DNA from: Escherichia phage ECML-4
DNA length: 64,000 bases
Direction: 5' to 3' (one strand)
Sequence record: JX128257
Below, piece after piece: positions 4,701 to 48,947 of the stretch (position 1 is the stretch's first letter; every line of letters begins with the position of its first letter). The notes under the pieces are model-generated. The model did no database searches and was not told the DNA's origin. It saw nothing but the letters and a program-made list of their open reading frames with translations. The position numbers were made by a program, and so were the translations under genes.

Positions 4701-6636
4701 GCCGCATGGTGCTGGTGGTGTGTGGTGGGGATATCGTTACCGCACGACTGTTTCTGCCCGTGATGTCACCACATATACATACACGGACAAAACAACCACG
4801 ACCATGACTGGTGAACAGATTGTGGAGACGCAAGTTATCCCATACATGCGCGAGATCGATATTTCTTTCGACGCATCTGGACTGCGACCTTTCACTCGTA
4901 TGTATGCGTTCTTCTCTGGTCGTGACGTCAATCTGTATTGCAAACCGAATGGTGGTAATTTCGGTGACCCAATCACCACTGATGCCAATGGTGCTGTTAA
5001 AGGTGTATTCCGCGTTCCACAGAACGATACAATCAAGTTCAACACAGGCGACAACGTGTTCCGCTTAACGGATAGCCCTGTTGACAGTAAATCTGCGGAT
5101 GATACACTGACCAATGCAGAAATTGTTCATAAATCTTTCGGTAAGAAACAAGGTATTCAAAAGACCTTTGTCAACACTCGTGTCCTGGGTTACACTGCCA
5201 GTACTCGCACCGAAACCAGCACTTCTGAAGTTGTGGTCGACCAATGGCGTGATCCGATTGCCCAATCGTTTATGGTAGCGACTAAGAATGGCGGCGAGTA
5301 TATCGAAGGCGTGGAAGTATTCTTCTCTACCAAGTCACGTGATGTTCCGATCACTCTGGAAATTCGCGAGATGGAGAATGGCTTACCTTCTCATACAGTC
5401 ATTACTCGTAAAACTTTGAACCCGTCTGAAGTGACGATCTCTACAGACTCTTCCGGCGGTACGAAGTTCACCTTTGATTATCCGGTGTATCTGCAAGCAT
5501 CGACTGAGTTTGCTATCGTTTTGTTGGCGAATACCCAGGATTACAACGCGTATATCGCGGAAATGGGCAAGAAAAACCTTCTGTCCAACGAATATATCGC
5601 CAAACAACCGTATACAGGGGTGTTCTTCACTTCTTCAAACGGTTCTACATGGTCTCCAAACCAAATGGCTGATATGAAATTCCGCATATATCGTTGTAAC
5701 TTCGCTGCGGGACAGAACGTTGTAACATTTGATTCGAAGCTCGGGCCAAAACAACGTCCGTTGGGATTGAATACTCTGAACTGCGTGAGTGGGTCTTCTG
5801 TTGTGACTGTGTTTGCACCTGGTCATGGTTTGGTTGCTGGGAACAATGTTACTCTTTCTGAATTGACAGGTGGTTGTGGCTTTACTCCTGAACAACTTAA
5901 CAAAACGTTTACTGTGACAGATGCGAGCTATACTTCATTCAAGATTGATGTTGGCGCAGCAGCAGACAGCAACGGTCAGATTGGTGGCGACAACGCATCT
6001 TTCTTGGGAAATTATCTGGTTGATATGTTCTATGCCAGCGTTACCAATTCGGCTCTGGAAGGTTCAATATTGAAACTGGAATATCGTTACCGCGATGCCA
6101 CTTCAAACTCCATGTCGGATTGGGCTGAATTTGAAACTGATACTGATGTTGCTCTGCCGACTGAAGGTATCTATCGCCAGGTTGGTGACTTCCAGATTCG
6201 TGCTACTATGACTCGTAGTGAAAACAACGTGTACACAGCACCGATGATTGATGGTGATGACCTAAGTGTAATCTTCAACTCTTATGGCGTAGATCCTTTT
6301 GAAGACGTTTTCAAATATGTCACAAAGGACATTGGTTTCGATAACCCATGTTCGACTGTGAAACTGTTCTTCGGGGCGATGCTGCCTTCTCAATCCTCCA
6401 TGAAGGTGCAGGTAAAACTGCTCCGAGCAGGGCAAGAGATGGATAGCGTGGATTGGGAAGACGTTACTCCAACTTCGCCTCTGGTTAACGACGGTTCTAC
6501 ATTCTTTGAATATGAGTATGATAAGACTGTGGCAAGCAACAATCCGTTCGTTGGACTGAAAGTCAGAGCACTTGTAAGGGGGAACCGAGTTGCTCCTCCT
6601 TCATTCAAAGACTTCCGTCTTATTGCTCTGGCATAA
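1798..6636 (+). CDS. Large (1612 aa) virion structural protein, putative tail fibre/baseplate-associated
   Basis: Single uninterrupted ORF with codon usage like neighbours; sits between a tail-protein gene and the neck genes; preceded by a late-promoter-like motif. No catalytic motif recognised. Confidence 0.45.
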   Translation: MQSTNLNRRPYWDDWNPGKRFSRILFRPMPIKVQTRELNQMQTILQDQIEKLGNHLFKDGSMVIPGGLTITNAAVSLKFTLAGGTEFTDLEGISELYVLGKDNNAKARVLSLERDLSAPDTMLAILEMTEAGNADGFHVNDNLYFQTYDVNDNFIRIGYGIAAAVTGSIVARMTKGVYFIRGMFLDVDDATLIVDKTSNTSSHRVGFKVTETIVTESEDESLYSNAQGTINSKAPGAHRLRIDLVLSRFDYDAVVEDFVELAKVRDGKIQSMVTQSTYNILEDTLAQRTYETNGDYNVSTHQIDIREHLKVNNNGGVFNAADGGDESKFVSVMKPGISYVRGRRIENVGEELVIVDKARDTDVLNNTPVAVATGNYLVTKNSKGVPVISRTVRYKLLNASGATQATALCISAERNSTEFRLYMRDLVVTGDASTITKVSYEESGITMFSAELESNQFNQSSMVDLIFSLPVFGVKTLAPTGSVDINYTVLRTYKVTLDSSGSGSISAPLGYSFSPEFSLYSAAKSDGSEAQFDISGSLSLTGSPVGSALQISLGSGNANQSINLLALMIRTTATIKTKTITETTETVTFTSQTSRPLANHDGWKLVSVKNDTGADVTSSFVLDGGQRDAGYYKSNLLSSAGAISGTYTVVYQYFAHSSGDFFSADSYTSMDYKDIPNYTSSTSGAVYGLADSLDFRPKITNGTSDTDMVRPNTAVILDTEYYLPRIDAIYLADNGVFGVARGISSNNLASPAIPANAMRLYELLIPPYTPNIDDIQIRTIDNRRYTMRDIGKLETRISNVEYYTSLSQLESSAMTQQVFDPITGNPRFKNGIAADPFKDFRLIDDLSEDWMGSIDTENGRLRPFVQQNVVDMTPVGWNKVMDGMVVCNYTPEISVNQEYATTTINVNPYAVFNWEGFLKINPTTDYWFENYYVAPRIINETINTRGTVQEGSVYGTWRTVSVSDRVWEPHGAGGVWWGYRYRTTVSARDVTTYTYTDKTTTTMTGEQIVETQVIPYMREIDISFDASGLRPFTRMYAFFSGRDVNLYCKPNGGNFGDPITTDANGAVKGVFRVPQNDTIKFNTGDNVFRLTDSPVDSKSADDTLTNAEIVHKSFGKKQGIQKTFVNTRVLGYTASTRTETSTSEVVVDQWRDPIAQSFMVATKNGGEYIEGVEVFFSTKSRDVPITLEIREMENGLPSHTVITRKTLNPSEVTISTDSSGGTKFTFDYPVYLQASTEFAIVLLANTQDYNAYIAEMGKKNLLSNEYIAKQPYTGVFFTSSNGSTWSPNQMADMKFRIYRCNFAAGQNVVTFDSKLGPKQRPLGLNTLNCVSGSSVVTVFAPGHGLVAGNNVTLSELTGGCGFTPEQLNKTFTVTDASYTSFKIDVGAAADSNGQIGGDNASFLGNYLVDMFYASVTNSALEGSILKLEYRYRDATSNSMSDWAEFETDTDVALPTEGIYRQVGDFQIRATMTRSENNVYTAPMIDGDDLSVIFNSYGVDPFEDVFKYVTKDIGFDNPCSTVKLFFGAMLPSQSSMKVQVKLLRAGQEMDSVDWEDVTPTSPLVNDGSTFFEYEYDKTVASNNPFVGLKVRALVRGNRVAPPSFKDFRLIALA

Positions 6637-8303: not shown

Positions 8304-8945
8304 ATGGCTACTTCAAAATATTTCAACTATACAGCACACCAAGGTACTCAAAAATTAATTGATGACTTGGTGGTCGAGATGATACAATTGCGTGGGATTG
8401 ACGTCAAGTATATTCCACGTTCTATTGTTGAAAAATACCCAATTTTAAACGAGGCCGAACACAAATTCGACCAAGCGTTTGACATCGAAGTGTACATGCA
8501 GGATTATCAAGGCTTCAACACACAGATGTGGGAAAAGTTCGGCGGTATTCAATTACAAGATGAAGTGACCTTCACTATTGCTCGTCGTCGTTTTTCAGAA
8601 GTTATTGGTAATGGTCCAGGCCTTGAACAAATGCCTCAGGAAGGTGATTTGATATATCTCCCAATGGCGAACAAAATATTCAAAGTGAATAACCCGAATA
8701 ACGACGAAGAATTTATGCAATTCGGTAAATGGTACACATATTCCTTACCGTGCACGTTGTTCCAATATGGTAATGAAGATTTTGATACTGGTGTATCTGA
8801 AATTGACGACATCGATAAACGTTTACAAGATCTAGACGGCGATGGTGTCTATAAAGATGCCAGTCTACAGACAGATAACCAATTTGCGGACGAAATAGAG
8901 AAAGATCTTTCGCCCAATAAAATGAAGATAGACTTCGGGGAATAA
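8304..8945 (+). CDS. 14: Neck protein gp14
   Basis: Size and position between gp13 and gp15 as in T4; start/stop abuts gp15. Confidence 0.65.
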   Translation: MATSKYFNYTAHQGTQKLIDDLVVEMIQLRGIDVKYIPRSIVEKYPILNEAEHKFDQAFDIEVYMQDYQGFNTQMWEKFGGIQLQDEVTFTIARRRFSEVIGNGPGLEQMPQEGDLIYLPMANKIFKVNNPNNDEEFMQFGKWYTYSLPCTLFQYGNEDFDTGVSEIDDIDKRLQDLDGDGVYKDASLQTDNQFADEIEKDLSPNKMKIDFGE

Positions 8946-8947
8946 TC

Positions 8948-9646
8948 ATGGCCAGACCATTTGAAAAATATTTCTACCATGAATCGTTGTTGAAATATAT
9001 CCATGTTTTCAACGCTATCATGTCGGATTTAAAAGTCAAAACCGAACGTGGCTTGATGGAAATCCCGCTGCATATGGCTATTGGTCGCCGTAATGACCTC
9101 AACAGGAACGTACCAGCCAATATGCTGCCATTTGCAACAATGTCCTTTGGTCAGTTCGAAATCAATAAACAGGTGACGAAGTCGTATCACAACCAAATAT
9201 CGACAGCCACGGCACGGTCCAAACAACGCATTCCGATCATTATAGATTTTGAATATAACATCAGAACGAAGAAACTGGTCGAAATGCTACAGGTGTTGGA
9301 ACAAATTTATTCTGTGTTCACTCCTTCCATTGATTGTCAGATAAAAGACAACGATACGTTATCTCAAGATCAAAACGTAAAGATCATGTTGACATCCCAT
9401 ACCATTTCCGATAACTGGGAAGGGGATGCCGCTGAATCACCCCATATAGATTGCACCTTTAATTTTCAATTACATGGACACATTTATGGCGAAGATTATT
9501 GGGTCGATGATGGCTCTGGCGGTGGTGATCCGAACGTTATCAAAGAGATAATTATTGAAATGTCTAATGATTTGAACATGCCATGGTCGGAACTTCCTGA
9601 GTGGTTCCGAGTTGATAAAGACGGCATACATCATCCGGAGGATTGA
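8948..9646 (+). CDS. 15: Tail sheath stabiliser / tail completion protein gp15
   Basis: Conserved position between gp14 and the terminase genes; tightly packed with neighbours. Confidence 0.6.
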   Translation: MARPFEKYFYHESLLKYIHVFNAIMSDLKVKTERGLMEIPLHMAIGRRNDLNRNVPANMLPFATMSFGQFEINKQVTKSYHNQISTATARSKQRIPIIIDFEYNIRTKKLVEMLQVLEQIYSVFTPSIDCQIKDNDTLSQDQNVKIMLTSHTISDNWEGDAAESPHIDCTFNFQLHGHIYGEDYWVDDGSGGGDPNVIKEIIIEMSNDLNMPWSELPEWFRVDKDGIHHPED

Positions 9647-43281: not shown

Positions 43282-43731
43282 ATGTTTCTTACATCCTTTA
43301 TTGACTGGATGAATATCATAAATGGCCTGAGGATTCCTGTTGGGAATCTTGGGCTTTCTCGTTCTTCTATGCCGCAAATCGATACCGACAAACAAGAAGA
43401 TTTTCACAAATATCTTGAAGACAACGGCGTGTCCATAGATGCTGCGCAAGTGCCCATCAAAATGCTTCGTCTTACCCAGAACGAAATCAATAAAATGAAG
43501 GTCTGGAAGATCATGAAGCAAATCAGAAATAAGAAACCTATGGGTAGAGTTTGGGTGTCTTCTGACAATTACGTTGTTGACGGTTCTCACCGATTTGTCG
43601 CTGCGTTGAACATGGATGGTAAACAGCGCATGAAGGTCTACAAAGTTGATTTGCCTGCGATGGAATTCGTAAAACTCGCCAAACAATTTCATGGTGTGCG
43701 GTACAGAACGGTCAGCGATACCCGTTTCTGA
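43282..43731 (+). CDS. ParB-like nuclease domain (ParB/sulfiredoxin fold) protein
   Basis: VPIKMLRLTQNEI...YVVDGSHRFVAAL resembles the ParB N-terminal domain with its DG-HR motif. Confidence 0.45.
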   Translation: MFLTSFIDWMNIINGLRIPVGNLGLSRSSMPQIDTDKQEDFHKYLEDNGVSIDAAQVPIKMLRLTQNEINKMKVWKIMKQIRNKKPMGRVWVSSDNYVVDGSHRFVAALNMDGKQRMKVYKVDLPAMEFVKLAKQFHGVRYRTVSDTRF

Positions 43732-43810
43732 ATACGATAGTTTATTGAAACCCTTTACTCAACATGGTGAGTCGACTATCATTTTATCCAATGAAATAAG
43801 GAGAATCACC

Positions 43811-44500
43811 ATGAAACGTTTAATCCTCGGGGTTGTGCTGGCAGGTCTGGCATTACCCGCCGCCGCCAAGCTGAACTCCACAGGTGACAAACTGTGGTCT
43901 GATCTTTCCTACTGTGCTGGGTTCTCCCAGGCGGTCGCTATCGACAAGTCCGGTTCCATAGAGAATTTCGCTGAACTTTGGAACACGGGTAACGTCTCCA
44001 CTGCTGTTGTTAATGCTGGGATTGAGTTCAACCGTTACAAACAGGGAGCCTACAACTTGAAAGGCTACCTGAATGACGATGAATTTAACCGAGGAGGCAT
44101 GGAGGCTGGCGATCTCATCATGACTGGCCGTATGGGCACACAAGGCCGTATGACTGTAAGGCAATGCCGTTCTCTCCCCTCTCCGGCATTACAGAAGGGT
44201 GTGCAAATCGGGCGTCGACATTTGGATCTGATCAATGATGGCAACCAATGCATCAAGGTGTTTGAATATAGTGCCGACCAAGAATCAGATCGACGTTTGA
44301 AAAAGGAATGGCGGACACGTGCCCTTGGATTGAGAGCATGGCTCGTAGAAAACGATTATTACTACGAGGATCGTGTTCAGAACGGATTGAAAGATCTTTC
44401 TACTAATTTGTCTGTCAATCTAGACGACCCAAGGCTTTCGCGTGAACTCAAGCAAACACGGATTGACTGCGACAATATGATGAAGGAGAACGAAAGATGA
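43811..44500 (+). CDS. Secreted/periplasmic protein with cleavable signal peptide
   Basis: AAGGAGAA site; MKRLILGVVLAGLALPAAA then AKL is a typical Sec signal; several Cys in the mature part. Confidence 0.5.
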   Translation: MKRLILGVVLAGLALPAAAKLNSTGDKLWSDLSYCAGFSQAVAIDKSGSIENFAELWNTGNVSTAVVNAGIEFNRYKQGAYNLKGYLNDDEFNRGGMEAGDLIMTGRMGTQGRMTVRQCRSLPSPALQKGVQIGRRHLDLINDGNQCIKVFEYSADQESDRRLKKEWRTRALGLRAWLVENDYYYEDRVQNGLKDLSTNLSVNLDDPRLSRELKQTRIDCDNMMKENER

Positions 44501-44817
44501 GAAACATAATATTCTTGTTATTCTTTTCTATGTTGGCATCATTCCAAGTTGTGGCAACTCCGGCTAGCAAATTGAATATCTGTGCGGCCTGGTTGTCTAC
44601 TTATCAACAATTTCACCCTGATGATAAAGATACATCCATCCTTTTATCAGATTATGAAGGTGAGTTGAAACGCCTTGATCTCTACAGCGTGGATCAAATA
44701 GAGAATGCTTTGGATTTGCCAATGATGGAGTCCGCTGCCGACAATAGCAAACAGACGATCAAAGATCTGACTATGTGTCGGGAAATAGCGACTAATTTCG
44801 TTGGAAATCAAAGATAA
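44497..44817 (+). CDS. Small secreted protein with signal peptide
   Basis: MRNIIFLLFFSMLASFQVVA signal; start overlaps the upstream stop (ATGA); AAGGAG site. Confidence 0.45.
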   Translation: MRNIIFLLFFSMLASFQVVATPASKLNICAAWLSTYQQFHPDDKDTSILLSDYEGELKRLDLYSVDQIENALDLPMMESAADNSKQTIKDLTMCREIATNFVGNQR

Positions 44818-45830: not shown

Positions 45831-45887
45831 TTCAATAACATTAGGGCGGTTATTATTAAACCGCCTTTTATTTGAGAGACCTATATC

Positions 45888-46560: not shown

Positions 46561-46848
46561 ATGTCCGGCGTATGGTGTGATGTATTATTAGTGAGATTTT
46601 CAAACGGGATGGATAACCAGATTATTTCATTCTTTTATCCTGTTCCCTTTTCTTCTATGGGTCTGACTGTCAAGCGCGTTCTTGACATAGAAGAAAAACT
46701 CAACGCCATGCCGTATATGGCGCGACCACACGTGCTGGGTTGTGAACTGTTAAACGAAATGATGATCGATGAGAATCTTGTTGAAACAATTATCACGCGT
46801 GAACAGATGAAAACCATACTGGCTCAGGGAGAACCCCATGTCGAATAA
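46561..46848 (+). CDS. Hypothetical small protein (95 aa)
   Basis: ORF immediately after the upstream stop. Confidence 0.3.
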   Translation: MSGVWCDVLLVRFSNGMDNQIISFFYPVPFSSMGLTVKRVLDIEEKLNAMPYMARPHVLGCELLNEMMIDENLVETIITREQMKTILAQGEPHVE

Positions 46849-47158
46849 ACCGTTTGAACTTAAATTTCGCGTTTGGCATATTCCCCAGGTTCCTGGGATC
46901 GCTTTTCATATTGAGGTTCCAACATTTGAAGAAGCGCAGCGCCTGAAGAATGCTCTGGGTGATTATGATTTGTTCCAGTTCAACAACAATATCAAGCCGG
47001 ATTATTGCAATGCTTCGGGCATTCAGATTTATCAACATGATCTGACCGATGATGATCTTAATGATATGGGTCTGGATGATCGTTGGGTTGATATGGAAGA
47101 TGTTGACGAACTCAACGATTATTTCGAGCATCTGCGCAGTACAGGGTGGGAAATATGA
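46838..47158 (+). CDS. Small, strongly acidic protein (106 aa)
   Basis: C-terminal half is rich in Asp/Glu (DLTDDDLNDMGLDDRWVDMEDVDELNDYFE). Confidence 0.4.
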   Translation: MSNKPFELKFRVWHIPQVPGIAFHIEVPTFEEAQRLKNALGDYDLFQFNNNIKPDYCNASGIQIYQHDLTDDDLNDMGLDDRWVDMEDVDELNDYFEHLRSTGWEI

Positions 47159-47463
47159 TTTCAAAATATATTGTAAAGCCTGGGGATACTCTGTCCAGCA
47201 TCGCTCTAAAATTATATGGTGATGCCCAACAGTATATCAAATTAGCCAGATTCAACAATATCCAAAACCCAGGCCATATCACGGTTGGTCAGATTATTTG
47301 TTTACCCACACCTGTCGAAGACAAAGAACACATTATGATTCCGGTTCAACCGACTCAGAAGTGTTTGGATGCGATAGCTGGTTTATTTCGGCCAGGTTTT
47401 TGTGATGGAACTATTGAACGCCACATTTATCAAGCGATTGTGGAAAACGCAGGTGTAAAATGA
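47146..47463 (+). CDS. LysM domain protein
   Basis: N-terminal YIVKPGDTLSSIALKLYGD...YIKLARFNNI...GHITVGQIICLP matches the LysM peptidoglycan-binding fold. Confidence 0.55.
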   Translation: MGNMISKYIVKPGDTLSSIALKLYGDAQQYIKLARFNNIQNPGHITVGQIICLPTPVEDKEHIMIPVQPTQKCLDAIAGLFRPGFCDGTIERHIYQAIVENAGVK

Positions 47464-47669
47464 TCGGATTAATTCGTTACCTGTTCATATTCGTAATTTC
47501 AACATTCATTTTATTTTTCTTTTTCAAATACTTGAAAGAGACTAAAATCTACCGAAGTAAACGTTGGCGCAAACGGGTGAGGGTAACTTTCCTGCTGCTG
47601 ATTTCTTCGGTTACAATAACCGCACTCACATTGGGTGCATATATCTACATTTTTGAAGGGGTACATTGA
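47460..47669 (+). CDS. Small two-TM membrane protein (holin-like or NfeD-like partner)
   Basis: Two hydrophobic helices separated by a basic loop (KYLKETKIYRSKRWRKRVRV); overlaps both neighbours. Confidence 0.4.
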   Translation: MIGLIRYLFIFVISTFILFFFFKYLKETKIYRSKRWRKRVRVTFLLLISSVTITALTLGAYIYIFEGVH

Positions 47670-48460
47670 TGTTCAAGAAATTGGTGTTCGGTGCAATTAT
47701 GGTTCTGGCTGCAAGTCTACTTTCTGGTTGTGGTGGCGTTATCGATGAAGGTAATGTCGGCGTTCGCACCCAATGGGGTGAAGTAGACATGAACCCTGTA
47801 ACAGCGGGGATCTACACCAGCTTTGTTTCAAGCGTGGATGTTTACACGACCAAAGAAGCCGTTGTGAGTCTGACTAAAATGACGCCAAAGGCCAAAGACA
47901 ACCTGACTCTGGAAGACTTGGATGTGGATGTTTATTACACACCCAATGTCGCAAAGGTTCCGTGGTTCCATACCAAATTTGCTGGCCAGAGCGCCGAACT
48001 CGATGATGGCACGATAGCGGTGGGTTTCAATCTAGTTAAAACTGCTGCAGCATCTTCTTCGATGGACGCCGTTTCTTCTCTTGATTCTATGACAATTCAC
48101 ACCCAACGTGCTGAATTAGAGAAGATGATTAAAGACCGCACTCAGCAACAATTAGAGACTGCAGCGCCTGGCATGTTCACAATCACACGCGTGTTGGTCA
48201 AAAAGGCACTGACGGATCCTTCCATTGAGCAGTCTATCCGTGATAATGTTATGGCGGACAAACGATTGGATACGGCAAGAAAGAACGTTGAAATTCGCGA
48301 GCAAGAAGCCCAAGCGAACCAGAAACTGACCACCTCGCTGACGCCTGAATATCTTCAACATGAATATAACATGGTATTACAATCATGCGCCAACAGTGGA
48401 AAATGTACTCTGATCGTTGACGGATCCGGCTCAGGTAAAATGCTGAACGTCGGCAAATAA
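47669..48460 (+). CDS. SPFH (band-7/prohibitin-like) domain lipoprotein
   Basis: Signal peptide with lipobox (MFKKLVFGAIMVLAASLLSGC); IDEGNVGVRTQWGEV...NLTLEDLDVDVYY and an Ala/Glu-rich helical tail fit the SPFH fold. Confidence 0.55.
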   Translation: MFKKLVFGAIMVLAASLLSGCGGVIDEGNVGVRTQWGEVDMNPVTAGIYTSFVSSVDVYTTKEAVVSLTKMTPKAKDNLTLEDLDVDVYYTPNVAKVPWFHTKFAGQSAELDDGTIAVGFNLVKTAAASSSMDAVSSLDSMTIHTQRAELEKMIKDRTQQQLETAAPGMFTITRVLVKKALTDPSIEQSIRDNVMADKRLDTARKNVEIREQEAQANQKLTTSLTPEYLQHEYNMVLQSCANSGKCTLIVDGSGSGKMLNVGK

Positions 48461-48543
48461 ACGCTTTATTCAATAATATTTGTTAGGTAAGCTGTAGTCC
48501 TCTTGTAGTGAAACATTGTAAACAACTAACTGGAGTAATCCGA

Positions 48544-48822
48544 ATGAACCGTACTGATTTTATCGCTCACATCGCCCAGACTCAGGGTATGACCAAAGGC
48601 GAAGCAGAGAAGATCGTGGCATCCTTTATCAACGGCGTAAAAACTGCAGTCGCAGCTGGCCAATCTGTCCAATTCGTCGGCTTCGGCGCGTTTGAAGTTA
48701 AACATCAGGAAGCGCGCACTGGCCGCAACCCGCTGAACGGGCAAGCGATTCAGATCGAAGCGAAAAATGTTGTTAAATTCAAAGTCGGCGAAGGTCTGAA
48801 AGCTGCTGCCAACGGCCAGTAA
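48544..48822 (+). CDS. HU/IHF-family DNA-binding protein
   Basis: MNRTDFIAHIA...VQFVGFGAFEVKHQEARTGRNPLNGQAIQIEAKNVVKFKVG aligns with E. coli HU ([30 protein letters not shown]). Confidence 0.85.
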   Translation: MNRTDFIAHIAQTQGMTKGEAEKIVASFINGVKTAVAAGQSVQFVGFGAFEVKHQEARTGRNPLNGQAIQIEAKNVVKFKVGEGLKAAANGQ

Positions 48823-48947
48823 TCACATCCAGAGCGGTCGTGCCTAGCACAGCGTGTTAGGCTAAAAGAGAAAGCCGAGGTTAATGCCTCGGCTTTTTCG
48901 TTGTTGGAATTCGGGTAAACTATAACAGAACCCAAAGGAGGAACAAC

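Follow-up and report, generated by a model that had tools for sequence, protein, structure and literature searches.

Virus-encoded SPFH proteins have been noted since 2006 (PMC1524935), and a paper from 2026 still calls it unclear why a phage carries an SPFH gene (PMC13239085). The question arises in concrete form in a 64,000-nucleotide (nt) stretch of Escherichia phage ECML-4 (sequence record JX128257; the whole stretch is referred to here as the window), which belongs to Kuttervirus (Ackermannviridae), the Vi01-type Salmonella phage group: with what does its SPFH protein work, and where in the infected cell? On the + strand of the window, a gene for an SPFH (Band 7) lipoprotein (47669..48460; ATG at 47669, alternative TTG at 47666; 263 amino acids, aa) follows a gene for a two-helix membrane protein, here termed the hairpin protein (47460..47669; 69 aa), which in turn follows a gene for a LysM protein (47155, an ATG with GGGTGGG before it, to 47463; alternative GTG start at 47146; 102 aa). 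The LysM and hairpin genes overlap by ATGA, the hairpin and SPFH genes by 1 nt within TGATG, and the LysM start at ATG 47155, which has a good ribosome-binding site, is more likely than that at GTG 47146. A preliminary description of this DNA had taken the three overlapping reading frames, all of which are present, for a single envelope operon. We conclude that the functional unit consists of two genes, those for the hairpin protein and the SPFH lipoprotein, and that the LysM gene lies outside it. Over 2.5 kb around the block, identity to the Salmonella phages S118 and Vi01 is 99.4%, and the block is matched in 175 phage records, nearly all of them Kuttervirus; one record named for Enterococcus and one named for Pseudomonas hold the Kuttervirus block at high identity and are probably mislabelled or contaminated.

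The SPFH protein has the fold and the domain order of its superfamily. The match to Pfam Band_7 (PF01145) covers residues 24-216 with E = 3.2e-13 (50.6 bits vs a gathering score of 23.6), and an AlphaFold monomer model (predicted local distance difference test score, pLDDT, 89) comprises a signal helix, SPFH1 and SPFH2, two coiled-coil helices (CC1 and CC2), and a C-terminal tail. Model secondary structure, a family alignment of 41 sequences, and fold matches place SPFH1 and SPFH2 at residues 22-182 (47732..48214, + strand); the model places CC1 at residues 184-223 (40 aa) and CC2 at residues 226-242 (together 48218..48394, + strand), and these two helices are the elements that form the wall and the roof of SPFH cages. 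In a Foldseek comparison with the PDB, matches with E = 3e-13 to 1e-9 over 230-290 columns were obtained to prohibitin, erlin, HflK/C, stomatin, and QmcA, all recently solved, cage-forming SPFH proteins, and after these to flotillin and the vault protein. The preliminary description had named an SPFH domain and had held that the absence of an SPFH fold on structure prediction would count decisively against it; structure prediction was run and the fold is present. By sequence, a search of the PDB gave only weak matches, to prohibitins (E = 1e-4), and a search of PHROGs gave phrog_200, 'lipoprotein' (1e-58). The prohibitins PHB1/PHB2, which are the top PDB matches both by profile and by fold, are also close in length (272 and 299 aa vs 263 aa), but they are eukaryotic, mitochondrial, and heteromeric, and are anchored by a transmembrane (TM) helix.

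When a profile of the SPFH protein was searched against 1.84 billion cluster representatives, 134 were matched at E <= 1e-30 and 3442 at the looser E <= 1e-3; judged by these counts, it recognises a small clade specifically. The orthologue in phage Sajous1, gp200, was identified by three peptides in mass spectrometry in 2024 (PMC10892097), and the SPFH protein is therefore made. Because the block is conserved in 175 records, because the SPFH protein has about 134 such cluster representatives, and because gp200 peptides exist, the block is more than a chance run of open reading frames (ORFs). The SPFH annotation itself is already known, and has been since 2011, when the description of phage SH19 listed a 263-aa protein with an SPFH domain (PMC3220722); public labels of the gene are 'SPFH domain band 7 family protein', 'lipoprotein', and 'regulator of protease activity HflC'. 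Near the C-terminus, directly before a conserved TLIVDG segment, stand Cys240 and Cys246 (CANSGKC; 48386..48406, + strand). In the 41-sequence alignment this pair is present in the window protein and its close lipoprotein homologues and absent from TM-anchored ones, and a C-terminal CxxxxxC pair occurs in 58 of the 127 family members that have a lipobox; the two cysteines probably form a periplasmic disulfide.

The N-terminus of the SPFH protein is a textbook lipoprotein signal, MFKKLVFGAIMVLAASLLSGC (47669..47731, + strand), with a basic n-region, a hydrophobic core, and a lipobox, LSGC, that contains the invariant cysteine, so that the lipobox named in the preliminary description stands as a prediction from sequence, with Cys21 (codon 47729-47731) as the residue predicted to be lipidated. 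About three-quarters of full-length family members have the lipobox cysteine at the same place, 1-4 residues ahead of the first SPFH strand, and the remaining full-length members have an N-terminal TM helix in place of the lipobox. Because either anchor lies only 1-4 residues from the first strand, the SPFH domain is predicted to be on the periplasmic side, pressed against the membrane.

The hairpin protein consists of two hydrophobic helices flanking a loop with 10 K/R, KYLKETKIYRSKRWRKRVR, and ends in an acidic, 4-residue C-terminal tail, EGVH; the two-helix membrane protein of the preliminary description is thus borne out. The same plan, that is, a helix at the extreme N-terminus, a basic loop, a second helix, and a short, usually acidic tail, is common to the hairpins encoded next to SPFH genes, and in 25 of them the loops contain 119 K/R vs 32 D/E, and the C-terminal tails 5 vs 17. 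Applied to these charges, the positive-inside rule predicts a cytoplasmic loop and periplasmic N- and C-termini. The sole family match of the hairpin protein in Pfam and PHROGs is phrog_11680, of unknown function. The preliminary description had pointed to an NfeD-like partner, by analogy with bacterial SPFH-NfeD operons. This part of the proposal failed: the hairpin protein has no match to NfeD (PF01957) at E <= 0.1, and, at 69 aa, it has no room for the OB-fold domain of NfeD. The feature shared with SPFH-NfeD operons is the adjacent and presumably co-transcribed membrane-partner gene, which in the window overlaps the SPFH gene by 1 nt. In QmcA-YbbJ (PDB 8z5g) an SPFH gene likewise lies beside, and is transcribed with, the gene for a small membrane partner, and QmcA is among the fold matches, but the phage partner is a 69-aa protein that lacks an NfeD/OB-fold, and the phage SPFH protein is exported, whereas QmcA faces the cytoplasm.

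Since a sequence search with the hairpin protein gave only three close matches, the association was followed by position. Among distinct non-Kuttervirus phage lineages with a lipoprotein SPFH gene (loci fetched from IMG/VR), 26 of 29 have a two-helix ORF of 55-73 aa that ends between -4 and +28 nt relative to where the SPFH gene starts. Examples with such an ORF, of 57-66 aa, directly upstream are phiEa2809 and three contigs: one of 174 kb from a soil phage, one from Burkholderia gladioli, and one that is T4-like. At locus L031 the hairpin homologue lies about 200 nt upstream of the SPFH gene. Acinetobacter phage Ab15 (L004 3854-4524) has no upstream hairpin beside its lipoprotein SPFH gene; instead, two genes downstream and beyond the gene for a 163-aa glycine/valine-rich repeat protein, it has an ORF for a 55-aa two-helix protein whose loop is basic. 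As a control, a fixed rule with first-ATG starts was applied to SPFH ORFs and to the other long ORFs of the same loci, and an upstream hairpin ORF was found at 25/35 of the former vs 3/182 of the latter (Fisher p about 1e-21). The results show that the phage SPFH lipoprotein does have a small membrane protein as its regular genomic neighbour, as the preliminary description had proposed for this locus. Neighbourhood clustering of 38 loci gave hairpins, which BLAST splits into several small groups, as recurrent families; the only other recurring neighbours were the gene for an RNase T-like protein, in 10 related loci, and that for an RNA ligase, in 5.

The association follows the phage copies. 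Phage SPFH proteins that have their own TM anchor (L040, L048-L052) have no hairpin; the cyanophage locus L005 departs in part from this rule, as it has upstream a short hydrophobic ORF, which does not follow the two-helix pattern. Among cellular sequences, the nearest relatives (35-44% identity) are encoded by stand-alone genes of Steroidobacter, Methyloversatilis, Rhizobacter, Zoogloea, and kin (L054-L133), and at 80 bacterial homologue loci, mostly from Beta- and Gammaproteobacteria, a hairpin was found only once, closely resembling hairpins of phage contigs; the other neighbours of the bacterial homologues were variable and uninformative. At 55 of the 80 loci the protein lacks a lipobox, most of these proteins having an N-terminal hydrophobic helix, and at about 25 it has a lipobox-like N-terminus.

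Seven cluster representatives (P0079, P0191, P0195, P0197, P0202, P0203, and P0205; for example L138 4001-4942) carry the arrangement in one chain: TM1, a basic loop, and TM2 are fused straight to the SPFH domain. P0195 is encoded on a phage-like contig of 123.5 kb that also carries T4 baseplate genes. In the fused forms the SPFH domain must lie at the inner membrane, on its periplasmic face, an arrangement that matches the topology predicted from the charges of the separate hairpins. The second helix of the fused forms ends at the point that corresponds to the lipidated cysteine of the split form. An analogy is provided by stomatin, itself a fold match, in which a hydrophobic hairpin and a lipid, palmitate, hold the SPFH domain on the membrane; in stomatin, however, hairpin and lipid belong to the same chain and face the cytoplasm, whereas the phage hairpin is a separate product, or is fused in the seven relatives. 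No other observation argues as strongly as these fused forms for joint action of hairpin and lipoprotein at the inner membrane.

We consider it somewhat more probable than its negation (roughly 0.55) that the two proteins form a periplasm-facing SPFH ring with hairpins on the inner membrane and have an accessory role. According to this proposal, the 69-aa protein would insert in the inner membrane as a helical hairpin, with its basic loop in the cytoplasm and its ends in the periplasm; the SPFH protein, translated from the overlapping start, would be exported and lipidated at Cys21; and the SPFH domain would lie flat against the membrane on the periplasmic side. Since the order SPFH1, SPFH2, CC1, CC2, C-terminal strand is that of cage formers, the most likely assembly would be a closed ring or dome, and, since CC1 is short, a small one, of roughly 15-20 subunits. 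A published regression (subunits = 0.1782 x CC1 length + 10.22; PMC12624060) gives about 17 subunits for a 40-aa CC1, a value extrapolated below the range of larger complexes on which the regression was fitted; among the SPFH cages solved so far, that of PHB1/2, with 22 subunits, is the most compact (PMC12624060). The hairpins would supply a membrane-spanning palisade, which a lipid anchor cannot provide, and ring and palisade would together enclose a small area of the inner membrane. The module would serve an accessory, early or middle role, altering or protecting the envelope of the infected cell, outside the lysis machinery; possible payoffs are that an inner-membrane protein is sequestered (FtsH being the obvious candidate), that other phages are excluded or resisted, or that membrane integrity is protected.

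Several observations weigh against this proposal. The structure model is of an SPFH monomer, and there is no direct sign of hairpin-SPFH contact; the SPFH loci counted above are not phylogenetically independent; and an alignment of the 25 hairpins has no conserved column, so that the hairpins are alike in architecture but need not be homologous in every lineage. The approximately 25 bacterial loci with a lipobox-like N-terminus and no hairpin mean that a hairpin is no general need of lipid-anchored forms. Ring size is taken from a regression on larger complexes, and the biological role is drawn from context alone.

The most direct of the opposing observations concerns the sorting of the lipoprotein. 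Residues +2/+3 after Cys21 are Gly-Gly, with no Asp+2 inner-membrane retention signal, and the +2 residues of the 127 lipobox members are G (59), T (20), F (14), S (13), and D (2). Gly or Phe at +2, reportedly on the evidence of Seydel et al. in 1999, can also retain some reporter lipoproteins; the literature consulted gave no support for such a signal. By the canonical rule for E. coli and Salmonella, Asp+2 specifies inner-membrane retention and other residues specify the outer membrane (PMC4623201), so that Cys-Gly-Gly, in a family in which Asp+2 is found in only 2/127, would send the lipoprotein away from a hairpin in the inner membrane. The SPFH protein might on this account be an outer-membrane lipoprotein that, like T5 Llp or Cor, masks a receptor or blocks entry, or that alters vesiculation, with the hairpin acting separately in the inner membrane, for instance as the two-helix T4 Imm protein does. 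An HflK/C-like protein of a Pasteurella multocida prophage has been found in outer-membrane vesicles (PMC9872710), and the window SPFH gene lies near a gene labelled 'superinfection exclusion'; the Pasteurella protein, however, is absent from the tblastn matches and could come from a different SPFH clade. Accessory genes of virulent phages also encode the superinfection-exclusion proteins T4 Imm/Sp and T5 Llp, which are small inner-membrane proteins or lipoproteins. The window genes are accessory too and lie beside the gene labelled 'superinfection exclusion', but in Pfam and PHROGs no sequence or family relationship to them was found. The tight pairing and the fused proteins argue for the same membrane for both partners, and TM-anchored homologues must be in the inner membrane. 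We favour the inner membrane over the outer by roughly two to one, and regard the outer-membrane account as a whole as doubtful. Binding to the hairpin might keep the lipoprotein in the inner membrane, as might rapid oligomerisation.

The ring proposal is compatible with a more specific version of the sequestration of an inner-membrane protein, namely that, in line with the FtsH modulation raised in the preliminary description, the phage ring mimics HflK/C, capturing the periplasmic domain of FtsH or co-assembling with HflK/C, and so changes the degradation of LpxC, sigma-32, or phage proteins. The resemblance to HflK/HflC-FtsH of E. coli includes an SPFH domain predicted on the periplasmic side and the same order, SPFH1-SPFH2-CC1-CC2-C-terminal strand, with fold matches at E about 1e-11 to 1e-8, among them the HflK/C-FtsH structures 9cz2, 7wi3, and 7vhq; in the HflK/C cage, FtsH's periplasmic domains contact SPFH2 on the inside (PMC12624060). 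A T4-like metagenomic contig that carries the module (L008) also encodes, about 3 kb beyond it (8578-9270), a membrane protein of the Bax1-I family, which we take to include YccA, an FtsH substrate/inhibitor. Assignment to HflK/HflC was nevertheless rejected, since the NCBIfam equivalog models for HflK and HflC give no match to the SPFH protein at E <= 0.1, identity to HflK/C is 14-19%, and the phage has one SPFH gene and no K/C pair. The anchors also differ, HflK/C having one N-terminal helix per subunit and the phage protein a lipid anchor with a separate hairpin; the best PDB sequence matches are prohibitins; and the shorter phage CC1 leads to the expectation of a smaller ring, which, at about 17 subunits, would have space for one FtsH hexamer at most. 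The literature search found no experimental link, and we regard an HflK/C mimic as unlikely.

The same T4-like contig bears on a further account, in which the rings stabilise the membrane, keeping the inner membrane sealed and energised against abortive-infection effectors or lysis from without, in the way suggested by flotillin/PspA-type protection and by T4 rII vs Rex. There (L008 1612-5813) the hairpin-SPFH module lies directly downstream of the gene for rIIB (Pfam Phage_T4_rIIB), the 722-aa gene before rIIB is taken to be rIIA, and the 57-aa hairpin ORF (4831-5004) is uncalled in the source annotation. The accessory, sporadically lost distribution of the module agrees with a protective function, and bacterial SPFH proteins have been tied to membrane stress responses (PMC8581546). 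This evidence is purely contextual; beyond the hairpin, no neighbour is conserved across lineages, and only the RNase T-like gene of the 10 related loci recurs. Searches of Pfam, PHROGs, NCBIfam, and PADLOC gave no superinfection-exclusion, defence, or anti-defence family for the hairpin or the SPFH protein, and membership in a known defence system was set aside, the PADLOC result being empty. We consider stabilisation or counter-defence very unlikely as the function.

That the role is accessory is indicated by natural deletions. Phage STP07 (KY000003) has an in-frame deletion that links residue 17 of the hairpin to approximately residue 198 of the SPFH protein (L135 2450-2701; hairpin residues 1-17 plus the last 66 SPFH residues), the complete genomes of BRM 13314 and Liang dang 541 give the same partial match, at 25% coverage, and in Taipeivirus the hairpin-SPFH module is absent. 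Because isolates of the STP07 type have been propagated, the module is dispensable for lytic growth, which points to a conditional, accessory role. The preliminary description had held that a deletion without effect on lysis, exclusion, or membrane phenotypes would count against it. To this the natural deletions give a partial answer, since the isolates that carry them are viable with no need of the module for lytic growth.

The deletions also bear on lysis control, in which the 69-aa protein would be a holin or antiholin and the SPFH lipoprotein would time lysis. The hairpin protein has the small size and the two hydrophobic helices of such a protein, the Kuttervirus gene table consulted lists no holin (PMC10892097), and spanin-annotated genes lie 2.5 kb upstream on the same strand. 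However, the tail is 4 residues long, with the charge in the inter-helix loop rather than in a cytoplasmic C-terminus; Pfam and PHROGs give no holin family match for the hairpin; there is no endolysin within the window, the endolysin lying, by collinearity with phage Guerrero, about 19 kb away, past the window end; and a terminator separates the unit from the spanin-annotated genes. Above all, hairpin and SPFH genes are both destroyed in viable STP07-type isolates (STP07 and the two other complete genomes) and both missing from Taipeivirus, and the hairpin is therefore unlikely to be a holin, as the preliminary description had suggested it could be. A two-component spanin was likewise rejected, the hairpin exposing at most about 6 residues to the periplasm and the lipoprotein being a 263-aa SPFH protein. 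By hairpin anatomy, endolysin distance, and natural deletions, we regard control of lysis as the most improbable of the functions considered. As a separate matter, the annotated i-spanin (43691-44500) and Rz-like/o-spanin (44497-44817) genes both encode proteins that begin with Sec-type signal peptides; the 106-aa annotated o-spanin has no lipobox, its first cysteine being preceded by L-N-I, and no canonical outer-membrane lipoprotein spanin is evident at 43691-44817, so that the spanin labels there appear doubtful from the sequence.

The results for the LysM gene set it apart from the hairpin-SPFH module. The LysM domain itself, as claimed in the preliminary description, is well supported (Pfam LysM, residues 5-51, E = 2.8e-11, 43.6 bits vs a cut-off of 20.9), but the protein has neither a signal peptide nor a hydrophobic N-terminus, since the LysM match begins at residue 5, and it thus lacks the export signal that would give access to the cell wall. 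Its C-terminal half, which contains two cysteines, is better conserved in alignment than the LysM half; in an AlphaFold model the LysM half has pLDDT about 85 and the C-terminal half about 50, too poor for a fold search. By tblastn, 48 Kuttervirus records have the LysM gene, whereas the SPFH gene is found in about 168 and the hairpin gene in 155, and the LysM difference is exact: a 309-bp presence or absence between two ATGAT start/stop junctions. In Se-J, an example without LysM, the stop of the gp17-like gene is joined straight to the hairpin start (locus L013 about 2783-2800, from the 309-bp indel comparison). Conversely, Klebsiella phages of Taipeivirus (e.g. Menlow) have the order gp17-LysM-HU, with neither hairpin nor SPFH gene. 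The lack of a signal peptide, the exact indel, and the presence of LysM without SPFH in Taipeivirus show that the LysM gene is separate from the hairpin-SPFH module, and the proposal of a three-gene functional unit does not hold.

The gene with which LysM does travel is the P22 gp17-like gene immediately upstream (46838..47158, + strand; PF17420 at 1.5e-51, phrog_1510; public label 'superinfection exclusion'), which overlaps the LysM start by ATGA and is translationally coupled to it; the pair persists in Menlow (L053 2172-2809) with its start and stop overlap kept. By gene content, the LysM gene is a passenger linked to the gp17-like gene and separable from the SPFH module, and the survival of the coupling in a genus that lacks the module suggests that the gp17-like and LysM products work together. 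LysM proteins of this group are labelled 'endolysin' in several records, yet have no catalytic domain.

The transcription unit as a whole appears to run from a terminator-like hairpin at 45843..45867 (+ strand), its probable upstream end, to a palindromic terminator-like hairpin at 48871..48896, called on the minus strand, its probable downstream end; terminators are annotated at the equivalent places in phage Mooltan. Its order is a 223-aa ImpD-like gene, DUF7425, gp17-like, LysM, hairpin, SPFH, and HU (48532-48822), and it is situated among replication genes. A scan for sigma-70-type promoters found 14, vs 8.5 +/- 2.6 in shuffles, which is not clearly above background, and no T4-type late motif was found near the block. 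Literature searches returned no transcriptome paper, transcript timing, or phenotype data, and no functional study of the Kuttervirus SPFH gene.

These results have consequences for annotation and for the biology of viral SPFH proteins. In annotation, the LysM, hairpin, and SPFH genes should not be handled as a single unit, and the label 'endolysin', repeatedly and mistakenly given to the LysM proteins, is without support. Other viral SPFH proteins (those of the T4-like phages 44RR, Aeh1, and RB43, of Vibrio, Rhizobium, and Streptomyces phages, and of giant viruses) have the same fold and occur in many viral proteomes, but they are not matched by tblastn, and most belong to other SPFH clades. 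Such proteins have been listed for twenty years in phage and giant-virus genomes, with no function assigned. The window and its relatives provide a concrete unit, in which a two-helix hairpin takes the place of NfeD as the partner and is near-specific to phage copies (26/29 vs 1/80 bacterial), and for which natural deletion mutants and fused relatives exist; as far as the literature searched extends, the phage-associated hairpin partner, the fused relatives, and the natural knockouts are new. Given its length of 263 aa and its CC1 of 40 residues, the protein may assemble into a ring smaller than that of any known SPFH protein, and would then be a convenient structural model. More tentatively, and as a less likely possibility, we propose that several families of virulent phages build a minimal SPFH corral on the periplasmic side of the host inner membrane, with the lipoprotein as its wall and the separately encoded hairpin as its palisade, and that it traps a specific host membrane machine, such as FtsH or the channel of a DNA-entry or defence effector. 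If this were true, the corral would lead to superinfection exclusion or to protection from membrane-targeting abortive infection, and would be the first function for a virus-encoded SPFH protein.

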